From a virus (lineage: Duplodnaviria > Caudoviricetes): a DNA stretch of 64,000 nt. A program made the position numbers and the translations under genes. Below, in pieces: positions 4,362-59,209 of this stretch (positions are counted from its first letter, which is position 1; each line of letters opens with the position of its first letter). The notes under the pieces were generated by a model. The model had not been told where the DNA came from. It did no database searches and saw only the letters and a program-made list of their open reading frames with translations. Location: the IMG/VR virus record IMGVR_UViG_3300031853_000007, positions 48,311-112,310 of that record; one strand, given 5' to 3'.

Positions 4362-6098
4362 TTATTTCCTGATTATGGGTTTGCGGTAATGCAACCCAAA
4401 AGAGTTATTAATTGATTCTTTCTTTTTCTTTGATATATCTAATTCGAGTTCGCTTGCCATATAGTTAGCATACGCTAACGACGAATACCTATCCTTCCTA
4501 TCATTACCTTTCTCACTGAGCTTTACTTTTGCGCCAACAACTTCATATTTCAGATTTATGATTTCATTAATAAGAAGTGTAGTTTGTGTGTAAGGCATAA
4601 GCAACTCAGTCTTCTTTTCAGTTGCTAGGTTTTTGAATCCTTTGATAGAATGGAAATAAGTATCGGCTTCTTGCTCGTTAATTAGCAGTCTCAATTTACC
4701 ACGCTTGATGTTATCTTTTAACAACGAAGCGCAGTCACTATTAAATTGCATACTAGCTTTGACACTGTATATAACCTTGGGTGGGTTAGAAGATTCACCC
4801 TTATATCTCGCCGCCATCTCATCATTATTTTTGCAAGTCAGGGCGGGATATACTTCGCCGGTATCGGGATTAGTTAAATCCTTTACAAGCTCGTCATATA
4901 CAGACATACCAACACCAGCACAGTCAAGTATAAGATAATCACACTGAAAATCCTCATAAAGCTGTCTTATGCGGATAGCCTGAGTCTCGGAGTGTCCACC
5001 CTCAAAGTTTTCAAGGTACACAACGTTTCTTATATACTGGTTGTTATTAGTGGGTAATAGCTGTAGTATAGTCACAGACGTAGCGTCGTTCTTGTGCTTC
5101 TTACTACCCATGACCGCGATATCAGCAGCGAGCAATCTAATCTCGCCATTCTGCTTGACTGGTGTTTTAAACGTATTGATATTAACCATATCGACAATCT
5201 CGGCTGGATAAAAAGCTGATTGTACTCTTCTAGCGAATACAAGTTCATCGTAGCTGAAATATGCGTCCTCGGCTTCTCCATGCCAGAGACACTCGTTCTC
5301 CATGCGGAAGCTGACCGAGTTAAAGCTGGCTTCGGACATTTCGTCCTCTACGTCCTCGCGCATCATTATGCCCTCTTTAATAGAGAGCTGATAGGGGAGA
5401 CCACATACAAAGTATGCTTTTTTATCATCGAGCATATTTGCTGCATATGATTTAACGTGACTCCAAGACCAGTGTTTTTTAAACCAAGCAGAACTAAGGT
5501 ATATTTGTTTATTACGCTCTTTAAGATGTGCGTACTCAGGTTTATCTAAATATCCTGCTTCACGAGAGGAGGTAAGAAACTTTGTAAGTACAGTATCTAC
5601 AATACTCTTTTTGACCATTCTAAATTCATCAATTAATAGAATGTTAGCTCGATTGTGTCTTGCGTTATCACTTGCTGTTACTGTTTTTACATAAGAGCCA
5701 TTCTTGAATATAACAAATGCGCCACTTGTGTTGTTCTTGTATTCCAATATCTCATTTCTTAATAGCGGAGACCTAGGCATTAGGAAGAGTATTATCTTAC
5801 TAACAATTTCAGCTGCTTGTTCCTTGCTGCCCGCCGCAATACATATCTGCGTGTTTGGGTATAGTATAGCTCGTTGACAGCAAAAAACCGCTCCTAACAA
5901 ACTTTTGCCAATTCCCCTACAAGCGCAAAGTATGAATCTATTACTCATATTCATTGCGACCAATAGTATACATTGGAATATTTTCAACTTAATGTTCAAA
6001 AAATCTTCTGCAAATCTATGAGGGTTAGCTCTATAATAACCACACCATTTATTCACCGCTTCCATCTGCTTGGTTTTCTCTTTAGACCAGTTACGCAT
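4362..6098 (-). CDS. terL: Terminase large subunit
   Basis: Walker A CRGIGKS, Walker B LLIDE, nuclease motifs LAADIA and RKDRYSS. Confidence 0.92.
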   Translation of the reverse strand: MRNWSKEKTKQMEAVNKWCGYYRANPHRFAEDFLNIKLKIFQCILLVAMNMSNRFILCACRGIGKSLLGAVFCCQRAILYPNTQICIAAGSKEQAAEIVSKIILFLMPRSPLLRNEILEYKNNTSGAFVIFKNGSYVKTVTASDNARHNRANILLIDEFRMVKKSIVDTVLTKFLTSSREAGYLDKPEYAHLKERNKQIYLSSAWFKKHWSWSHVKSYAANMLDDKKAYFVCGLPYQLSIKEGIMMREDVEDEMSEASFNSVSFRMENECLWHGEAEDAYFSYDELVFARRVQSAFYPAEIVDMVNINTFKTPVKQNGEIRLLAADIAVMGSKKHKNDATSVTILQLLPTNNNQYIRNVVYLENFEGGHSETQAIRIRQLYEDFQCDYLILDCAGVGMSVYDELVKDLTNPDTGEVYPALTCKNNDEMAARYKGESSNPPKVIYSVKASMQFNSDCASLLKDNIKRGKLRLLINEQEADTYFHSIKGFKNLATEKKTELLMPYTQTTLLINEIINLKYEVVGAKVKLSEKGNDRKDRYSSLAYANYMASELELDISKKKKESINNSFGLHYRKPIIRK

Positions 6099-7279: not shown

Positions 7280-8038
7280 TTAAGAGAAATCTTCTCTTAG
7301 CTTTTCGATTATTGTGATTTGACCTTTACCAGTTACATATGTAGTGTGACCTATCTTGGTAGCATATGGTGTTTCAAATGTGTATTCCTTTACTTCAAAC
7401 AACCCGCTATCAATATATCTCTGGTAGGGCTGGTTTTTATGCTTTTCATCAGACATAAGGTATTTCTTATCTCTTAGCCACTTGAATAATCTCTTTTGCC
7501 CTATACGAATGTTTTCGTCTTTAGCAAGCTTGGCTAGTGTGTTAATATCTATCAAATCGCTGGTGTCGGCAACGTGGTCGGCAAATGCAACTTTTGGCTT
7601 ATCTTCTTCTACTTTACGTTCAAGAGCGAGTTTTTCCTCTTGCTCCTCTATCCAACGCTTTGCTCGCTCAACGGGATCGTCAATCATATAACTATCCATT
7701 AGCTTATATGTACCAGTCTTGCGAATGGCAGGTAAAACTTCGGAAGTAACCCAATGTTTAAAATATTTAGCTTCGGGAAGCTTGCTGCCAAAGATAAGAG
7801 AGTAGATACCGGATTCGTTAATAATAGTTGCTTTACTTTTGTAGTTGGAACCAGTGTCGGGAATTACGACGGTGGTTTTATCCTCCGAATCTACGTGTCT
7901 CGCCATGGCATCTCTCGGATTACTATACCCTAACGCTTCCGCCACATCCTTGCCTACAAACCACGGCTCTCCATCAATTATAGTTGTTCTTACACTGCCA
8001 AAGTTCTTGTTTTCAAATACTGTTACGATTTCATTCAT
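7280..8038 (-). CDS. BRO-N/KilAC antirepressor
   Basis: EPWFVGKDVAEALGY, INESGIYSLIF, FKHWVTSEVLPAIRKTG, TGKGQ. Confidence 0.92.
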   Translation of the reverse strand: MNEIVTVFENKNFGSVRTTIIDGEPWFVGKDVAEALGYSNPRDAMARHVDSEDKTTVVIPDTGSNYKSKATIINESGIYSLIFGSKLPEAKYFKHWVTSEVLPAIRKTGTYKLMDSYMIDDPVERAKRWIEEQEEKLALERKVEEDKPKVAFADHVADTSDLIDINTLAKLAKDENIRIGQKRLFKWLRDKKYLMSDEKHKNQPYQRYIDSGLFEVKEYTFETPYATKIGHTTYVTGKGQITIIEKLREDFS

Positions 8039-8080
8039 AAATAATCATCGACCTTTCTGTTTTGTTTTTTATATTTAGAC

Positions 8081-8266
8081 TTACATACCACTAAGAGTAA
8101 GTAGATCTTTTCTTAACTTTTCATCGTCTCTAAAGACAAAAACTGTTTTGTCTATATTGTTTTTATCGGGTTTTATATCTATAATAAGATTACCCATTCT
8201 TAAAAGTCTTCTTGCCGTAGCTGGAGCAAATATAGACTTGCCTTTTACCGATGCTGTATTATTCAT
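8081..8266 (-). CDS. Small hypothetical protein (DUF5659-like)
   Basis: ARRLLRMG..IIDIKPDK...KTVFVF pattern. Confidence 0.55.
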   Translation of the reverse strand: MNNTASVKGKSIFAPATARRLLRMGNLIIDIKPDKNNIDKTVFVFRDDEKLRKDLLTLSGM

Positions 8267-8300
8267 TTCTTTTGAGACCTTTCTCTTTTTAAAGTATCTT

Positions 8301-9011
8301 TTACATCTTATCAGCCCATGCTGATAGTTCGCCCCTATAATTCTTTGTGAGGTGGCAAACCCTCGCCCATTCCTTATTCTGAAAATGTTCGATACATCTG
8401 CCAAGTCCTGAGTCTTCGGGTTTAATTCCCTGTACCTGTAACGATGAGCCAATGACACACACGTAACAATCGTCGTGACATCTCGTGAGAACTGCTTTAA
8501 GTTGCTCTTTAGTCATACACTGAGCTTCGTCGATAATCACAAATTTCCTAGAGAAATCACTGCCGAGTATATACACATCCGTCATAGGCGTGAAGATACC
8601 AGTTCCCATCTTCTGGTTCATATAAGTATCGTCGTTTATCACAGTTACCGGATTCTCACCAAGATTAATTAGAGTATGAATAAGAGGAGCCATATAAACC
8701 GATTCTTTGTCCGCACGGTCTCCGGGGAGAAATCCTAGCCGTCCTTCTGAACTAGGGGTTCTGATATAGTACGCTTCGTCGCAAATGCCATATCTCACAT
8801 ACATAAGAGCTACCGCTACCGCCATAGTGGTTTTTCCTGAACCTGCTACCGCATCAGCTATTACAAGTTTGACATCTCTATCCCAAAGACAATCTCTGTA
8901 ATATAACTGTTCGGAATCACTACAATCGAGACCATAGAAAGGATGGTCTTCGAGTGTCTTGGGCGGTTCACCATATGGTAATGCTATATTTTTCTTTGTT
9001 GATTTAGCCAT
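8301..9011 (-). CDS. phoH: PhoH-family ATPase
   Basis: AGSGKT, LGFLPGD, IIDEAQ motifs. Confidence 0.9.
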   Translation of the reverse strand: MAKSTKKNIALPYGEPPKTLEDHPFYGLDCSDSEQLYYRDCLWDRDVKLVIADAVAGSGKTTMAVAVALMYVRYGICDEAYYIRTPSSEGRLGFLPGDRADKESVYMAPLIHTLINLGENPVTVINDDTYMNQKMGTGIFTPMTDVYILGSDFSRKFVIIDEAQCMTKEQLKAVLTRCHDDCYVCVIGSSLQVQGIKPEDSGLGRCIEHFQNKEWARVCHLTKNYRGELSAWADKM

Positions 9012-9643
9012 TAGAATACCTCATTAAGATCATCAATTATTCCAGAAACCACACCTAGTTCAAGCTGCATCGAGCTTGACAGGTACCAATCTTTTGTCCA
9101 ATTAGCGGACAGTCTCTTCTTTGTAATATTGGTACGTTCAATAATGTAATCTGCCATCATCTCAACTGTACGCTTATAATTCTTCTGGCTTTCTTGTATC
9201 TGTTCATAATCGCCGACCTGCTGACTACTACCGGGATGAAACATAGCAGTACTATACTTCATCGCGTATCTCTTATGCCCCGCGAGAAGAAGCAATGCGC
9301 CCATACTCATAGCAATACCAGCATTAACGGTATAAACAGGAGTCTTGCTTGCGGTAATTGCAGAGATAAGAGCGTATCCCTGATGTACGTCACCGCCGTA
9401 GCTATAAATGAATATTACTATCGGCTTTCTCTCTTCGACCGGGAGGTTCTTGTCTGCGCGATTATACTCATAAATCTGTTTAGTGATTTCAAAAGTATTT
9501 TCAGTAATATCATCGTCAATGTAAATAACTCTGTCGTCATAGTCTTTGTAGTACCTCAATATATCTGGGTCGGGTAAGTGTACGTCTGTTAATTCCTTGG
9601 GAATCTTTATATCCAGCGCGTAAACATCGTCCATAAAATCCAT
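9011..9643 (-). CDS. clpP: ClpP-like protease
   Basis: IYSYGGDV, AMSMG (catalytic Ser), AMFH (His). Confidence 0.88.
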   Translation of the reverse strand: MDFMDDVYALDIKIPKELTDVHLPDPDILRYYKDYDDRVIYIDDDITENTFEITKQIYEYNRADKNLPVEERKPIVIFIYSYGGDVHQGYALISAITASKTPVYTVNAGIAMSMGALLLLAGHKRYAMKYSTAMFHPGSSQQVGDYEQIQESQKNYKRTVEMMADYIIERTNITKKRLSANWTKDWYLSSSMQLELGVVSGIIDDLNEVF

Positions 9644-9675: not shown

Positions 9676-10280
9676 TAGCATCGTAGGATACCACATTTAT
9701 ATTTACACAGACCTTCGCCTTACCTCCATTAACTTTCCATGTTGTTCGACCACTGAGAAGTCAAGGCTGAATATAAAGGAGCTACCTTTATACTTCTTGA
9801 CTACTTATAAACCTCAGGCGGGACTGTTACCCACAAATTTCACCAAACGTTCAGCATTACCCCCGAAGAGGATTTATTCATCTTAAATTCTATAATACTT
9901 TAGAAGAATAAACTTTACTTGTGATATGGCTACTCTAACTGGCGACTTGTCTTATACCCCGTTTGACCGAGTTCAACACAAATGCGATTGCTTGGATTAC
10001 CCAAGGAACCCCACGGTTTCCACGCCGCAGGTTTTGGGCTTATTCTACACACGTAGCGTCTATTACTCGCACGACAAGTTCCATGTCTTACACAACGTTA
10101 ACTCTTAGCACCACCACTAATATCAAGGGTTTCCCTTTCTTGCTTATACGTCACCGCATAAGAATCGACTTATCATCACAAGTATCCTTGCAATAATATT
10201 CGGTTAAGTAGCGTCTCGGCAGGGTGTTAACCATCTGCACCGAGTTGTTGTAAATATAAATCTAGCATCCTACAATGCCA
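9676..10280 (-). ncRNA. Large structured RNA, ROOL-like (about 605 nt)
   Basis: Ends pair over ~30 bp (GGCATTGTAGGATGCTA-GATTTATATTTACA with TGTAAATATAAATG-TGGTATCCTACGATGCT); many internal stems; no sense ORF; abuts tRNA-Asn. Family assignment rests on size and context only. Confidence 0.65.
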
Positions 10281-10282
10281 AG

Positions 10283-10355
10283 CTCTCCGACTAGGACTCG
10301 AACCTAGAACCGACTCGTTAACAGCGAGCTGCACTACCGCTTGTGCTATCGGAAA
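10283..10355 (-). tRNA. tRNA-Asn(GTT)
   Basis: Full cloverleaf: acceptor TTTCCGA/TCGGAGA, anticodon loop CT-GTT-AA, T-loop TTCGAGT. Confidence 0.92.
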
Positions 10356-10413
10356 GTATATGAGCTTTTTATCCTCATGCTCAGGAGCAAAAAGAGGTGA
10401 AAACATAAGAGAA

Positions 10414-10485
10414 TTGCGCGCTCAAGAATCGAACTCAAAACCGTAGGTCATGACCCTACTCGTGTTACCATTACACCAACGCGCG
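10414..10485 (-). tRNA. tRNA-Met(CAT), initiator-like
   Basis: Cloverleaf with CAT anticodon and C1:A72 mismatch. Confidence 0.8.
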
Positions 10486-10722
10486 ATATAATAAAATGAG
10501 GGCGGGAATAAGTCGAACCTATTCTCCGCCCACTAAATCCAAAGGATTCAGAATGAAGAAAATGGTGACAGCAACGAGTAATTACCTCCGGCTATATTTG
10601 TCATGCAAGCATGAGCGTCCTTTGATTGCTGCCATATAATGCGGTGACAATCGCCACCGCTGATACGTAATATGTGAACTCACCCGCCGAGTTGAAATTG
10701 TTGCGGGGTCACACAATAGTAT

Positions 10723-16595: not shown

Positions 16596-16688
16596 ACATC
16601 GCTCGACATTCTATACACTGACTATACTGTACAAAAAAACGGACTTAAAAGTGAAACTCCGAAATTTTGGGATTTTGCTGGTCGATTT

Positions 16689-16772
16689 TGGATTCTAGGG
16701 GGGAATGCTTGGATTGTAGGGGGGAATGCTTGGATTGTAGGGGGGAACGTATGGATTTCAGGGGGGAATACT
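16689..16772. repeat. Iterons: 4 x 21-bp TGGATTNNAGGGGGGAANNNN
   Basis: Copies start at 16689, 16710, 16731, 16752, directly upstream of rep. Confidence 0.88.
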
Positions 16773-16813: not shown

Positions 16814-16860
16814 TAATCAAGTATATAATCAAGTATATAATCAGGTTATAATATTATTAA
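16814..16860. repeat. AT-rich 12-bp repeats (TAATCAAGTATA x ~3); probable unwinding element of the origin
   Basis: Direct repeats next to the iterons. Confidence 0.7.
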
Positions 16861-56600: not shown

Positions 56601-57626
56601 TTGGAAAGAGTTAAGTTATCGGTTAACGAACTGTTCAGTGGTATAGGAAATCAGGTTAGAGGCATCAGAGACACCAATCTTTTTGATGTGACAGTAGCGT
56701 GTACTTCTGATATTGACAAAGATGTAATGGTTTCATATGCAGCTATTCATAACGGTTTGACCAATGAAATGATTGAGAGTTATTCAGACTACCCAAGTAG
56801 GGAGCGAATGGCACAGGATTTGCTTGATAGAAAGATAGGGTATGATTTCAAGAATAACAAGCCTTATGATTGGAATAAGAAAGCAAGAAGCAAAAGCAAA
56901 TACCTTGAAAAGTGTTGGCTTGCCATGAAGTTGTCAAACAATCTTGGAGATATAAGCGGCATTGAAGAATTACCATATGCTGATCTGTGGACAGTTTCGT
57001 TTTGTTGCCAAGACATATCTGTCGCGGGCAATTTGAAGGGGTTTGAAGAAAATAGTGGAACAAGAAGTTCTCTTGTTTGGCAGCAGATAAGACTTCTTAG
57101 AAATTCAATCGCCAAGAATGAAGCTCCTAAGTATATTATGTTCGAGAATGTGAAGAATCTTGTGGGCAAAAAGTTTAAACAAGAATTTGATAGGTTAGTC
57201 AACGTTCTTGATGAACTTGGGTATACAACTTATTGGGAAATCCTCAACGCTAAGAATTGCGGTATTCCTCAGAATCGTGAAAGAGTCTTTGCAATCTGTA
57301 TTCGTAAGGATATAGACACAGGTAAAATGACTTTTCCAAAACCTTTCGATAATGGTCTTAGACTTAAAGATGTTCTTGATGATGTAGTAGATGAAAAGTA
57401 TTACATAAACAATGACAAGGCAGATGAGCTAATAGACGAGCTTATAGAAAATGGAACATTGTCCGAGGAAACATATCCTGTTGCTTCAAGAGGTAGATAT
57501 ACAGATGATAATTCTACTGAGCAGAATATTGAAGTAAGAACCGAAAGTGTCGCAAACGCATTGACTACTGTTCAAAAGGACAGTATGTGTTTAAAATGCA
57601 GCGCACCGAACAGGGTAAGTCGCTGA
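56601..57626 (+). CDS. C5 DNA methyltransferase, N-terminal part (motifs I-VIII plus first TRD-like module)
   Basis: ELFSGIG, SFCCQD (PC variant), ENVKNL, PQNRERVF. Confidence 0.92.
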   Translation: MERVKLSVNELFSGIGNQVRGIRDTNLFDVTVACTSDIDKDVMVSYAAIHNGLTNEMIESYSDYPSRERMAQDLLDRKIGYDFKNNKPYDWNKKARSKSKYLEKCWLAMKLSNNLGDISGIEELPYADLWTVSFCCQDISVAGNLKGFEENSGTRSSLVWQQIRLLRNSIAKNEAPKYIMFENVKNLVGKKFKQEFDRLVNVLDELGYTTYWEILNAKNCGIPQNRERVFAICIRKDIDTGKMTFPKPFDNGLRLKDVLDDVVDEKYYINNDKADELIDELIENGTLSEETYPVASRGRYTDDNSTEQNIEVRTESVANALTTVQKDSMCLKCSAPNRVSR

Positions 57627-58656
57627 GAAAAGCATATGAGTCACATGAAATAAAGCATGGTTTCAATGAATATCGAGAACCCGTTTTGAGAAATGATGGT
57701 ATGACAAACACAATTTCAACAGTTCAGAAAGATAACTTGTTAGTAGAGTGTAATGGGGGGGGGCAGTTGCAACTCCCAATCGACCTCACACTTAACGCTC
57801 CAAGAGCAATCGACCGAGCAAACTGTATCAAGGCAAGATACGATGCCGGAATCTCGAATTTCAGGCAAGACGGTACCGGTGTTATTGAGTTGCAAAGGAA
57901 CAAAGTTTGAGAAATTTGTTGAGTTTTGCTCTACCCTTATGGCGAGAGATTTCAAGGGATTCGGGAACCAGTCAATGACAGGAGTGATAACAAATGACTC
58001 AAAAGATAAATGACTCTACCGATTCAGTAATATTGGGGAGACTTATCCCCAAGAGCAACAAGATACATCAAAACCAAGAGGTATTATCTATTTGTGGGGT
58101 GGGAATAACTTTGAAATCAACAGATTATAAAAATCCTCCTAAAATTCTTGTTTTATGCGATATGGAAGTGGGGGGGCAGCGTGGAAGAGTGTTTAGTAAT
58201 CAAGGAATAATAGGAGCGTTGTCAGCGACTGACTGGAAGGATGCTCCTAAGTGTGTTGTAAAAGAAATAGTAAAGAAAGATGATAATGAGTAGTCCATAT
58301 GATCTACTTTCTCCAGATGATGATGAAAATTATGTAAGAGTAAGACAAGCAACAAAGACTGGTTATATACTCTGTCCTATAAATGGTGTGGCTGACTTAT
58401 CATTTCCATCGAGCAAGCTACGCCGAGGACGAGTTCAAGGTGGGGGGGGGCATAGCTCCTACCATAATGGCAAGTGGTAATTGCTGTTTGTATAGAATTG
58501 AGAGAGTTGAGGATAATAATGAATCAAAACAAACCTAATATTCTTGGGACAATATACGATACCAAATGTGACAATGCTTTTGCGGCAGGACATGGTGCCG
58601 TATATGATCCACAGAATATAGCACCGACTTTAGTAACCGCAACGGGGGGGCAATAA
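57587..58656 (+). CDS. Array of short overlapping ORFs encoding methyltransferase TRD-like modules
   Basis: TNTISTVQKD, ANCIKARYDAG, CSTLMARDFKG, ITLKSTDYKNPPK, GALSATDWKDAPK, RRGRVQ..IAPTI, IAPTLVTATGG. Confidence 0.75.
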
Positions 58657-58942
58657 GCCAATGAGTATTGATAAGAAGAAATTTAGAATAAGGAAACTTA
58701 CGCCCACAGAATGTTTAAGACTGATGAGCGTTCCTGATGAAGATATTCAGAAAGTTAAAGATATAGGAATGTCCGATAGTCAGATGTACAAACAGGCAGG
58801 AAACAGTTTGGTTAGTAATTGCGTTGAGCTGATTTTTGAGCATCTTTTCAAAGCTCAGTATCAAGATGATTTTAAGTGTTATGACGAAAATTTTCAGTAA
58901 ACCCCACAGATCATAATGAAAGTTCTGCCCTAAGTGGGGGGG
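57755..58942 (+). repeat. Five poly-G tracts, each followed by CA (G9 57755, G7 58170, G9 58442, G7 58644, G7 58936)
   Basis: Read directly from the sequence. Confidence 0.9.
58661..58900 (+). CDS. C5 DNA methyltransferase, C-terminal part (motifs IX-X)
   Basis: RIRKLTPTECLRLM, YKQAGNS. Confidence 0.9.
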   Translation: MSIDKKKFRIRKLTPTECLRLMSVPDEDIQKVKDIGMSDSQMYKQAGNSLVSNCVELIFEHLFKAQYQDDFKCYDENFQ

Positions 58943-59209
58943 CAACACCAATCGCTGTATACAAGCAGGCAGTCTTGACTTCGGCAAATGGAGTAAGATG
59001 CACGAAAGCAGCAGAAGATATTATAGCACACATGGAGTTGCACCAACACAGCACACCTGTGGTGGTGGAAATATCGAGAGTAAGATAATTGAGGATAATG
59101 AATAGCGATTGTTTTGGGTCTAGCTGCAATAATCACTTGTGGCATCGTAGATCTTATAGATACTATTGGTTCTGCACAACACGACAATAATAAGAAAAGG
59201 GGTAATTAA

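Follow-up and report, generated by a model that had tools for sequence, protein, structure and literature searches.

A phage cytosine-5 methyltransferase locus in pieces whose set of recognition modules may be governed by slippage at runs of guanine

The DNA analyzed here, referred to as the window, is a stretch of 64,000 nucleotides (nt) that makes up the final 64 kb of the 112,310-base virus record IMGVR_UViG_3300031853_000007, for which the CheckV completeness estimate is 96%. It includes, at nucleotides 56601-59105 of the plus strand, a cytosine-5 (C5) DNA methyltransferase locus that is found in pieces. We consider that this is probably a contingency locus, in which slippage at runs of G sets the repertoire of recognition modules that accompany a multi-piece phage C5 methyltransferase. 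The anatomy of the locus, the selection acting on each module, and the variation in length and state among close alleles and across the wider family directly support this interpretation. The encoded enzyme is putative, and the formation of 5-methylcytosine (m5C) is predicted from its motifs and its Pfam match. A preliminary description had proposed a split enzyme with serial target recognition domains (TRDs) under the control of five poly-G switches, an overall interpretation that was partly supported by the analysis that follows.

Results

Organization of the split methyltransferase locus

The catalytic half of the enzyme and motifs IX-X had been described as separate open reading frames (ORFs), and this was borne out by the matches to the Pfam family PF00145: a 341-amino acid ORF, the N core, matches profile positions 34-248 (6e-45), and a 79-amino acid ORF, the C core, matches positions 271-324 (2e-9). 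The large-domain motifs of the family are present in the N core, namely I (ELFSGIG), IV or PC (FCCQDIS), VI or ENV (FENVKN), and VIII or QxRxR (QNRERVF), and motifs IX and X, located after the variable region, are present in the C core, where they are read in the profile match as RKLTPTECLRLM and QAGNS, respectively. The C core has its own ATG, 10 nt past the fourth of the G runs described below. The gene is therefore divided at the variable region, with motifs I-VIII in one ORF and motifs IX-X in another, as in enzymes of the M.AquI type; of 80 viral relatives retrieved with the N core, nearly all have the same split. The features of the locus are the following.

56601..57626, plus strand: N core ORF, 341 amino acids, with motifs I-VIII and recognition module 1 (ANALTTVQKD)
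57587..57910, plus strand: mini-gene A, 107 amino acids at G9, with module 2 (TNTISTVQKD), tract 1, and module 3a (ANCIKARYDAG)
57764..58013, plus strand: alternative frame past tract 1, a Ser/Thr/Gln-rich open linker overlapping module 3a, followed by module 3b (CSTLMARDFKGFGNQ)
57994..58293, plus strand: mini-gene B, 99 amino acids, currently on, with module 4 (ITLKSTDYK), tract 2, and module 5 (GALSATDWK)
58280..58480, plus strand: mini-gene C, 66 amino acids, currently off, with module 6 (VRQATKTGY...VADLSFPSSKLRRGRVQGGGG) and an out-of-frame tail
58451..58538, plus strand: module 7 (IAPTIMASGNCCLYRIERVEDNNESKQT), which at G9 is not in the frame of module 6
58519..58656, plus strand: mini-gene D, 45 amino acids, ATG 58519 after the Shine-Dalgarno (SD) sequence GAGGA, with module 8 (IAPTLVTATGG) and a stop just past tract 4
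58661..58900, plus strand: C core ORF, 79 amino acids, with motifs IX (RKLTPTECLRLMSVPD) and X (KQAGNS)
58944..59105, plus strand: module 9 (VAPTQHTCGGG), first start codon ATG 58998
58279..58293, and again 58507-58521 and 59091-59105, plus strand: junction motif GA(T/G)GATAAT(A)ATGA (direct-repeat families D5 and D7)

The locus is arranged like a small operon consisting of the N core, mini-genes A to D, the C core, and module 9, and the start of each mini-gene overlaps the end of the preceding gene. The junction motif is composed of a mini-gene end, the SD-like sequence GAGGA, and the ATG of the next gene. Mini-gene A lies in the -1 frame with respect to the N core and starts at GTG 57587 or ATG 57596, with the SD sequence AAGGA; mini-gene B has the SD sequence AGGAG 9 nt ahead of its ATG. 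Each of the mini-genes A to D includes one G run, 45-60 codons from the start. The region of ~150 nt where the N core meets mini-gene A (57484-57632) is near-identical to that of the 141-kb phage L002, the only close relative found (N core identity 82%), at a synonymous divergence (dS) above 1 elsewhere. This region includes a hairpin (57566-57585), the SD sequence AAGGA, GTG 57587, and the heptamer T_TTA_AAA (57590-57596); re-initiation at the SD sequence and GTG 57587 and a -1 frameshift at the heptamer are equally possible. Scans for promoters and terminators gave nothing exceeding shuffled sequences.

The 1 kb between the core ORFs and the 200 nt beyond the C core contain short TRD-like peptides in all three frames. 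About nine such modules had been described, and all nine of the peptide strings quoted for them were found in the three-frame translation. The presence of eight or nine TRD-like modules is the serial arrangement of the SPR and phi3T enzymes; here, however, these modules are distributed over at least six ORFs in three frames and not along a single polypeptide. A target sequence for each module is a prediction. Homologues of modules 1, 2, 3a, 3b, 6, and 9 are present in 40-127 of the fetched loci (47 in the case of module 9), their identity to the relatives is often far above that of the catalytic part, and their order varies. Module homologues are also found in frame within the continuous, repeat-free enzymes L003, L004, and Dulem virus 39, which include two to five of them in one frame. 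In the alignment with M.MpeI, the module 8 type corresponds to the portion of the recognition domain directly before motif IX, and the module 3b type is an additional insert that M.MpeI lacks. In every relative examined, module 3b is in the +1 frame relative to module 3a. The Gly run of module 9 is encoded by the codons GGT GGT GGA, and its L002 counterpart is a separate ORF with its own start and 50% identity. The search found no larger protein containing mini-gene B. The ESM Atlas includes many clusters of small hypothetical proteins, and its model of mini-gene B is poor (predicted local distance difference test, pLDDT, 0.39).

Guanine tracts and the frames that they set

The positions and number of the G tracts agreed with the preliminary description, which had listed five tracts of G7-G9, each of them followed by CA, and no other G run of at least seven in the window.

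57755-57763, plus strand: tract 1, G9, a three-state selector
58170-58176, plus strand: tract 2, G7, in frame now
58442-58450, plus strand: tract 3, G9, off now
58644-58650, plus strand: tract 4, G7, module 8 and C core separate now
58936-58942, plus strand: tract 5, G7, 36 nt past the C core stop

The five tracts span 1.2 kb, and there are no other G or C runs of seven or more in the window. Seven-base matches numbered 9 as opposed to 1.6 expected, and none of 100 shuffles reached 9. The whole 112-kb genome includes six G or C runs of at least seven, all six of them in the C5 locus or in a Dam-like gene. The sixth run, located outside the window at genome nucleotides 5650-5657 (about position 1151 of locus L175), is a G8 followed by CA that is in frame within an ORF for a D12-class (Dam-like) adenine methyltransferase (PF02086, 2e-22), which is likely a second phase-variable methyltransferase. 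GGG is the rarest Gly codon of the phage (10.4%), and GGG-GGG is used in none of the 99 Gly-Gly pairs outside both methyltransferase loci. The formation of a G-quadruplex was set aside, the runs being 200-400 nt apart.

The states of the tracts were defined by changing the run lengths of the window sequence in silico. At tract 1, G9 leads into module 3a, G8 or G11 leads into the linker and module 3b, and G7 or G10 leads to a stop. At tract 2, G7 gives modules 4 and 5 and both other phases truncate mini-gene B after module 4. At tract 3, G8 or G11 joins RVQGGGG to IAPTIMASG, i.e., module 6 to module 7 in one complete domain, RRGRVQGGGGIAPTIMASG. At tract 4, G6 or G9 joins TATGG to NKPMSIDKKKFRIRKLTP, which fuses module 8 to the C core as TATGGNKPMSIDKKKFRIRKLTP; the product has 126 amino acids and includes a recognition domain and motifs IX-X, and G7 and G8 leave separate products. 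This fused reading is the continuous reading found in relatives (TMQGGNQEPKILE) and in M.MpeI. The repeat sets the frame, as in contingency loci, at tracts 1 to 4 and not at tract 5. The states that had been assigned to the first four tracts were correct; tract 5, which had been taken to be out of frame, is already in frame with module 9 at G7.

A single continuous ORF broken by homopolymer errors of sequencing or assembly would also show interruptions at such runs, and the breaks at tracts 3 and 4 do coincide with long G runs, which are miscalled on some platforms. This alternative, already raised in the preliminary description, fails at four frame changes located away from any tract (about 57590, 57994-58013, 58280-58293, and 58519-58538), each of which carries an SD-like sequence and a start codon. 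Because these four changes sit outside the tracts, tract correction cannot restore one ORF, and no combination of tract lengths yielded one in silico. Moreover, tracts 1 and 2 and the G8 of the Dam-like gene are in frame, A or T runs of at least seven elsewhere leave long ORFs unbroken, the independent assembly L002 has the same phases, and the 4- and 5-nt repeats of the relatives described below cannot be homopolymer errors. The chance that errors account for the locus appears minimal, and this explanation is largely excluded.

Two other repeats were found in the window, a 21-nt tandem repeat at 16688-16769 (3.9 copies, 88% matches, with a G6 in each; TTGGATTGTAGGGGGGAATGC) and, near it, a 12-nt repeat at 16814-16852.

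States of close alleles of the mini-genes

The proposal that tract lengths vary among relatives was upheld by public alleles of mini-genes A and B with identities of 90% or more, among which every state that slippage predicts is represented. The relatives of mini-gene A form 55 protein clusters with three length classes: 28 clusters of about 98-107 amino acids (the whole query), 14 of about 133-149 amino acids, and 7 of about 61-77 amino acids. These classes match the three states predicted for tract 1. The proteins P0012, P0041, and P0070 have a common sequence up to ...LLVERNGGG / TISTVQKDNLLVERNGGG and then diverge. P0012 continues with QRQLPIDLTLNEPRAIDRANCIKARYDAG, which is module 3a; P0041 continues with RDSSQSTSRLTNQEQ...NTLMARDYKG, which is the linker followed by module 3b; and P0070 continues with AETAPNRPHA and a stop, a tail homologous to that predicted for the window at G7 or G10. 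Other alleles of mini-gene A have Glu-Arg repeats of varied length, which reflect a GA repeat like that of L002.

Among the clusters at least 90% identical to mini-gene B, the on forms have 100-102 amino acids (P0002 and P0094). Off forms were found in both of the other frames: P0003, which ends with precisely the tail expected for the window (GGSVEECLVIKE), shares its frame with P0085, and P0087 is in the other. Near-identical alleles are therefore polymorphic in state at tracts 1 and 2. In the case of tract 3, variation in state was seen in more distant homologues only. Mini-gene C has 354 homologues at E values up to 1e-3, and 85 of the best 150 have 140 amino acids or fewer. Distant homologues include an on form, P0102 (...RRGRVQGGGDICPTLMAG...), and the frameshifted P0101 and P0113. 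In P0110 (135 amino acids) a module of the module 6 type is fused to motifs IX-X, and the combination of modules 6 and 7 occurs elsewhere both as a free mini-protein and as a fusion to these motifs. P0103 (5142 amino acids), a repeat protein, matched module 6 by chance and was rejected.

Repeats at the homologous junction in the wider family

In addition to the 80 viral loci, 79 loci were obtained from independent metagenome assemblies (human gut, rumen, and bioreactor). A variable repeat directly follows the catalytic domain, at the position that tract 1 occupies in the window, in about 60 of the 80 viral loci and in many of the 79 metagenome loci; such a junction repeat was found in more than 70 related phage contigs. 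The repeats include (GACA)4-19, (AGAGC)3-13, (AACAG)6-7, (ACAA)5, (GAACAGA)12, (GA)7 in L002, and the G9 of the window. Among 75 non-redundant repeat loci, module 3a is in frame in 26 (state A) and module 3b in 20 (state B), with neither in frame in the remaining 29, and the three states are of similar frequency. Two more poly-G junctions, ranging from G4 to G10, were on in 19 and off in 20 loci, and on in 7 and off in 12 loci, respectively. Loci L050 and L075 have no mismatches in 2500 nt, yet one has (GACA)4 and the other (GACA)5; L008 and L014 differ only at the repeat, (AGAGC)4 in one and (AGAGC)5 in the other. L056 and L065, with G7 and G9, are less close (42 mismatches in about 2460 nt). 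When phages were picked by similarity to the C core, which sampled more varied habitats, such repeats were present in 5 of 51. Given this rarity, glycine codons in C5 methyltransferases do not in general give rise to such repeats. The relatives found in bacterial assemblies belong mostly to Lachnospiraceae and other Clostridia.

These comparisons bear on the possibility that the runs act on RNA. Homopolymer runs are known sites of transcriptional slippage, and an RNA polymerase or a ribosome slipping at the G runs would give a fixed mix of products from one genotype in each infected cell, the differences in DNA length being incidental. The off phase of tract 4 is shared by the window (G7) and L002 (G10), as if designed, and the T_TTA_AAA heptamer at the non-repeat junction 57590 is in phase and identical in L002, both of which would fit such recoding. 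On the other hand, near-identical alleles differ in the state encoded by their DNA and all three phases are common, a pattern of slippage at the DNA level; the tetra- and pentanucleotide repeats at the homologous junction are no known recoding signals; and the RNA past the heptamer is no more stable than shuffled sequences (z = -0.96). Recoding as the principal explanation is consequently improbable.

Additional repeats were observed in relatives of this family. Locus L116 (Ga0326511_10004402), from the same sample series as L002, has within 1 kb (4825-5836) a (GACA)7, four G7-G8 runs, and an (AC)8, and constitutes a second many-switch methyltransferase locus. A group of 57-kb phages (L053, position 3024; L024, 2123; L007, 3289; L107, 2239) has (ACAG)5-16, encoding (QTDR)n, in a phosphoadenosine phosphosulfate (PAPS)-reductase-like gene (SFSGGKDSTV) about 2 kb upstream of the methyltransferase; this gene is unbroken in some contigs and split at the (ACAG)n in others. 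Between motif I and the PC motif, some 200 nt from the start of the catalytic domain, many relatives, e.g., L029, L059, and L138, have (TTAC)4-5 or (ACTT)4, a repeat that is absent from the window gene.

Selection on the modules and comparison with L002

No locus closer than L002 was found in the metagenome scan, and the L002 contig was the sole match in IMG/VR to the DNA patterns around tracts 2/3 and 4. Searches of GenBank phages with blastn and tblastn gave nothing or weak module matches only, and no close relative. L002 has the same broken layout, and the end of its N core is identical. At the tract 1 junction it has (GA)7; a single G8 replaces tracts 2 and 3, without exactly the 265 nt located between them; and there is no tract at the position of tract 5.

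The ratios of nonsynonymous to synonymous substitution rates (dN/dS) were calculated by the Nei-Gojobori method for each segment in its own frame with respect to L002, at dS values from 0.24 to about 2. They were 0.07 for the catalytic part, 0.05 for module 1, 0.09 for module 2, 0.13 for module 3a, 0.19 for module 3b, 0.19 for module 7, 0.12 for module 8, 0.10 for the C core, and 0.31 for module 9. The modules are under purifying selection in their separate frames (0.05-0.31). In contrast, the linker frame that overlaps module 3a has a dN/dS of 3.6, and therefore this linker is kept open and is not selected as a peptide. The peptides downstream of the repeats are conserved in on and off loci alike.

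These values have to be set against the possibility of decay, i.e., that a formerly continuous multi-module enzyme was broken at mutable runs and is now a pseudogene. Tracts 3 and 4 are at present out of phase with their downstream regions, about half to two thirds of the homologous junctions in relatives are off, and module 9 is weakly conserved (dN/dS 0.31, 50% identity), as decay would have it. However, the low dN/dS values hold at dS up to about 2 and in four ORFs and frames, the modules have no internal stops or indels, the SD-plus-ATG junctions are repeated and conserved, and L002 and more than 100 contigs have retained the broken layout. We therefore view decay as very improbable; like sequencing error, it is largely excluded.

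The comparison with L002 also raises the possibility that the runs are mainly recombination joints for the exchange of cassettes and that their effects on frame are a by-product. Their short homology at the borders of modules would allow these to be deleted, duplicated, or swapped from phage to phage. The absence from L002 of precisely the segment between tracts 2 and 3, with one G8 in its place, is what such a joint would leave. In some loci the catalytic half is only 35-39% identical and yet a module is 74-75% identical to module 2; the order of the modules also differs among relatives, and both observations point to exchange. Recombination nevertheless leaves unaccounted for the length polymorphism in otherwise identical sequences and the repeats of 4-, 5-, and 7-nt units other than G at the same junction, and it is compatible with slippage as proposed here and not exclusive of it. 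As the main role of the runs it is unlikely.

L002 has other runs and genes of note outside this locus. Its regions 7743-8315, 10147-10707, and 8344-9450 include a G11 in an adenine-methyltransferase-like ORF (NPPF motif; weak EcoRI_methylase match), a PAPS-reductase-like ORF with a G8 and a C10 within or next to it, and, between these two ORFs, a TnpB-like gene (OrfB_IS605 and Cas12f1-like TNB).

Discussion

A model for a probable contingency locus

In the mechanism that we favor, two proteins would form the core of the enzyme, namely the N core (motifs I-VIII and one module) and the 79-amino acid C core (motifs IX-X), and four translationally coupled mini-genes located between them would supply TRD modules. 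Slipped-strand mispairing during DNA replication would alter the length of a run and, with it, the downstream frame. Tract 1 would pick module 3a, module 3b, or neither; tract 2 would switch module 5 on or off; tract 3 would complete or truncate the domain formed by modules 6 and 7; and tract 4 would fuse module 8 to the C core or free both. A phage population would then consist of many genotypes with differing module sets and probably differing sets of m5C targets, which could be a hedge between hosts with restriction enzymes blocked by methylation and hosts with methyl-dependent nucleases. We infer that slippage takes place at the DNA level within one population. The pieces would assemble into an active enzyme, by analogy with the split enzymes discussed below, and changes in the module set would be expected to change specificity and to bring an anti-restriction benefit; the argument for this benefit draws on what is generally known of McrBC-type systems. 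RNA recoding and a role of the runs as recombination joints may both add to this mechanism.

Several observations weigh against the model. All of the variation seen is between assemblies, and for the closest alleles the tract lengths were deduced from the tails of the proteins. At tract 4, L002 has a G10, which is in the same phase as the G7 of the window, and the variation seen there is in length and not in phase. The frame changes at the junction of the N core with mini-gene A and at the mini-gene junctions are not controlled by repeats, and the idea that recognition-only proteins of 45-107 amino acids would work with a split core is a hypothesis. No phase of tract 5 places it in an ORF that has a start codon, and a G8 at this position would link an 18-codon open stretch without a start codon to module 9; of the five switches originally proposed, four tracts have an ORF context and no switch function was seen for the fifth. 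Finally, a distribution of about one third on and two thirds off is also expected under neutral drift, although the conservation of the modules argues against neutrality.

We also put forward, with considerable reservation, an extended form of the model. In this form the free modules of 45-107 amino acids would dock in trans on the two-piece core, each with its own hypermutable repeat, and would generate dozens of reversible and heritable methylation repertoires; together with the Dam-like and PAPS-reductase-like genes, the locus might then be part of a DNA-modification 'phasome' that is widespread in the phages of gut and rumen Clostridia.

Phage methyltransferases are usually viewed as fixed anti-restriction genes, and phase variation is associated with bacterial pathogens, the one phage example being receptor-binding proteins. 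The locus and its relatives suggest that the phages of common gut bacteria hedge their epigenetic coat. Since methylation guards against classical restriction but exposes the DNA to methyl-dependent nucleases, a switchable modular enzyme would widen the host range at the population level. If the model is correct, C5 specificity could be supplied by small exchangeable modules, possibly in trans, which would be relevant to enzyme engineering and to the methylation patterns of metagenomes. In practice, gene callers break such loci up into dozens of 'hypothetical proteins', and the use of methylation motifs in binning may mislead in the case of these phages.

Comparison with known systems

The components of the locus are known separately, as phase variation of methyltransferases, poly-G phase variation in phages, and multispecific and split C5 enzymes. 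The literature searched, outside which lie most subscription journals, gave no account of a phage C5 methyltransferase whose recognition modules are selected by repeats.

Natural split C5 methyltransferases include M.AquI and M.EcoHK31I, and in M.BspRI, M.HhaI, and M.SssI a break in the variable region yields fragments capable of complementation (PMC3404938). The division between motifs I-VIII and IX-X within or beside the variable region and the completion of an enzyme in trans by small polypeptides are common to these systems and to the window locus as we interpret it, and by this analogy the core plausibly works as two proteins. The difference is that the known split enzymes consist of two fixed pieces with one specificity, in contrast to two core pieces and at least four mini-genes of variable frame in the window.

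The multispecific C5 enzymes of Bacillus phages, M.SPRI, M.Phi3TI, M.Rho11sI, and M.H2I (Trautner et al. 1996, cited in PMC12707154), are also phage-borne and have serial short domains between motifs VIII and IX with a presumed anti-restriction role. They are single polypeptides without repeats, unlike the window modules, which are found in separate frames and mini-genes gated by G runs. The GenBank phages of the Bacillus multispecific group gave no sequence match to the window locus.

Among solved structures, M.MpeI (PDB 4dkj) is the closest to the continuous relative L004 (6e-33). The two have a similar catalytic layout, including a long insert between motifs I and IV, and the GPTLTASG...RYLTPLEC segment of M.MpeI aligns with the module 8 type followed by motif IX. 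M.MpeI differs in being monospecific (CG) and formed by a single chain, without extra modules or repeats.

In the Type I system NgoAV of Neisseria gonorrhoeae, a poly-G run in hsdS changes specificity, with a single run and two states. NgoAV and the window locus are alike in that a homopolymer within a specificity determinant alters, or in the window is predicted to alter, recognition, and unlike in that the former concerns a Type I S subunit without a module array.

Poly-G tracts that are hypermutable have been described in Campylobacter phages (Sorensen et al. 2021, cited in PMC11868660). These represent phage-encoded phase variation by poly-G slippage, as proposed for the window locus, there in receptor-binding proteins and here in DNA-modification genes of gut Clostridia phages.

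The phase-variable methyltransferases of bacteria include the Type III mod and Type I hsdS/hsdM phasevarions and the Type IIG enzyme cj0031 of C. jejuni (PMC7383803, PMC5909438, PMC4889913). In these systems, as in the window locus and its family, a repeat within the coding sequence sets the frame and alleles in different phases coexist. Those enzymes act on N6-adenine, are encoded on the chromosomes of bacterial pathogens, and are usually turned on or off by one repeat. The window locus, in contrast, encodes a putative phage-borne C5 enzyme with four or five tracts, at which modules would be selected or completed rather than the whole enzyme switched.

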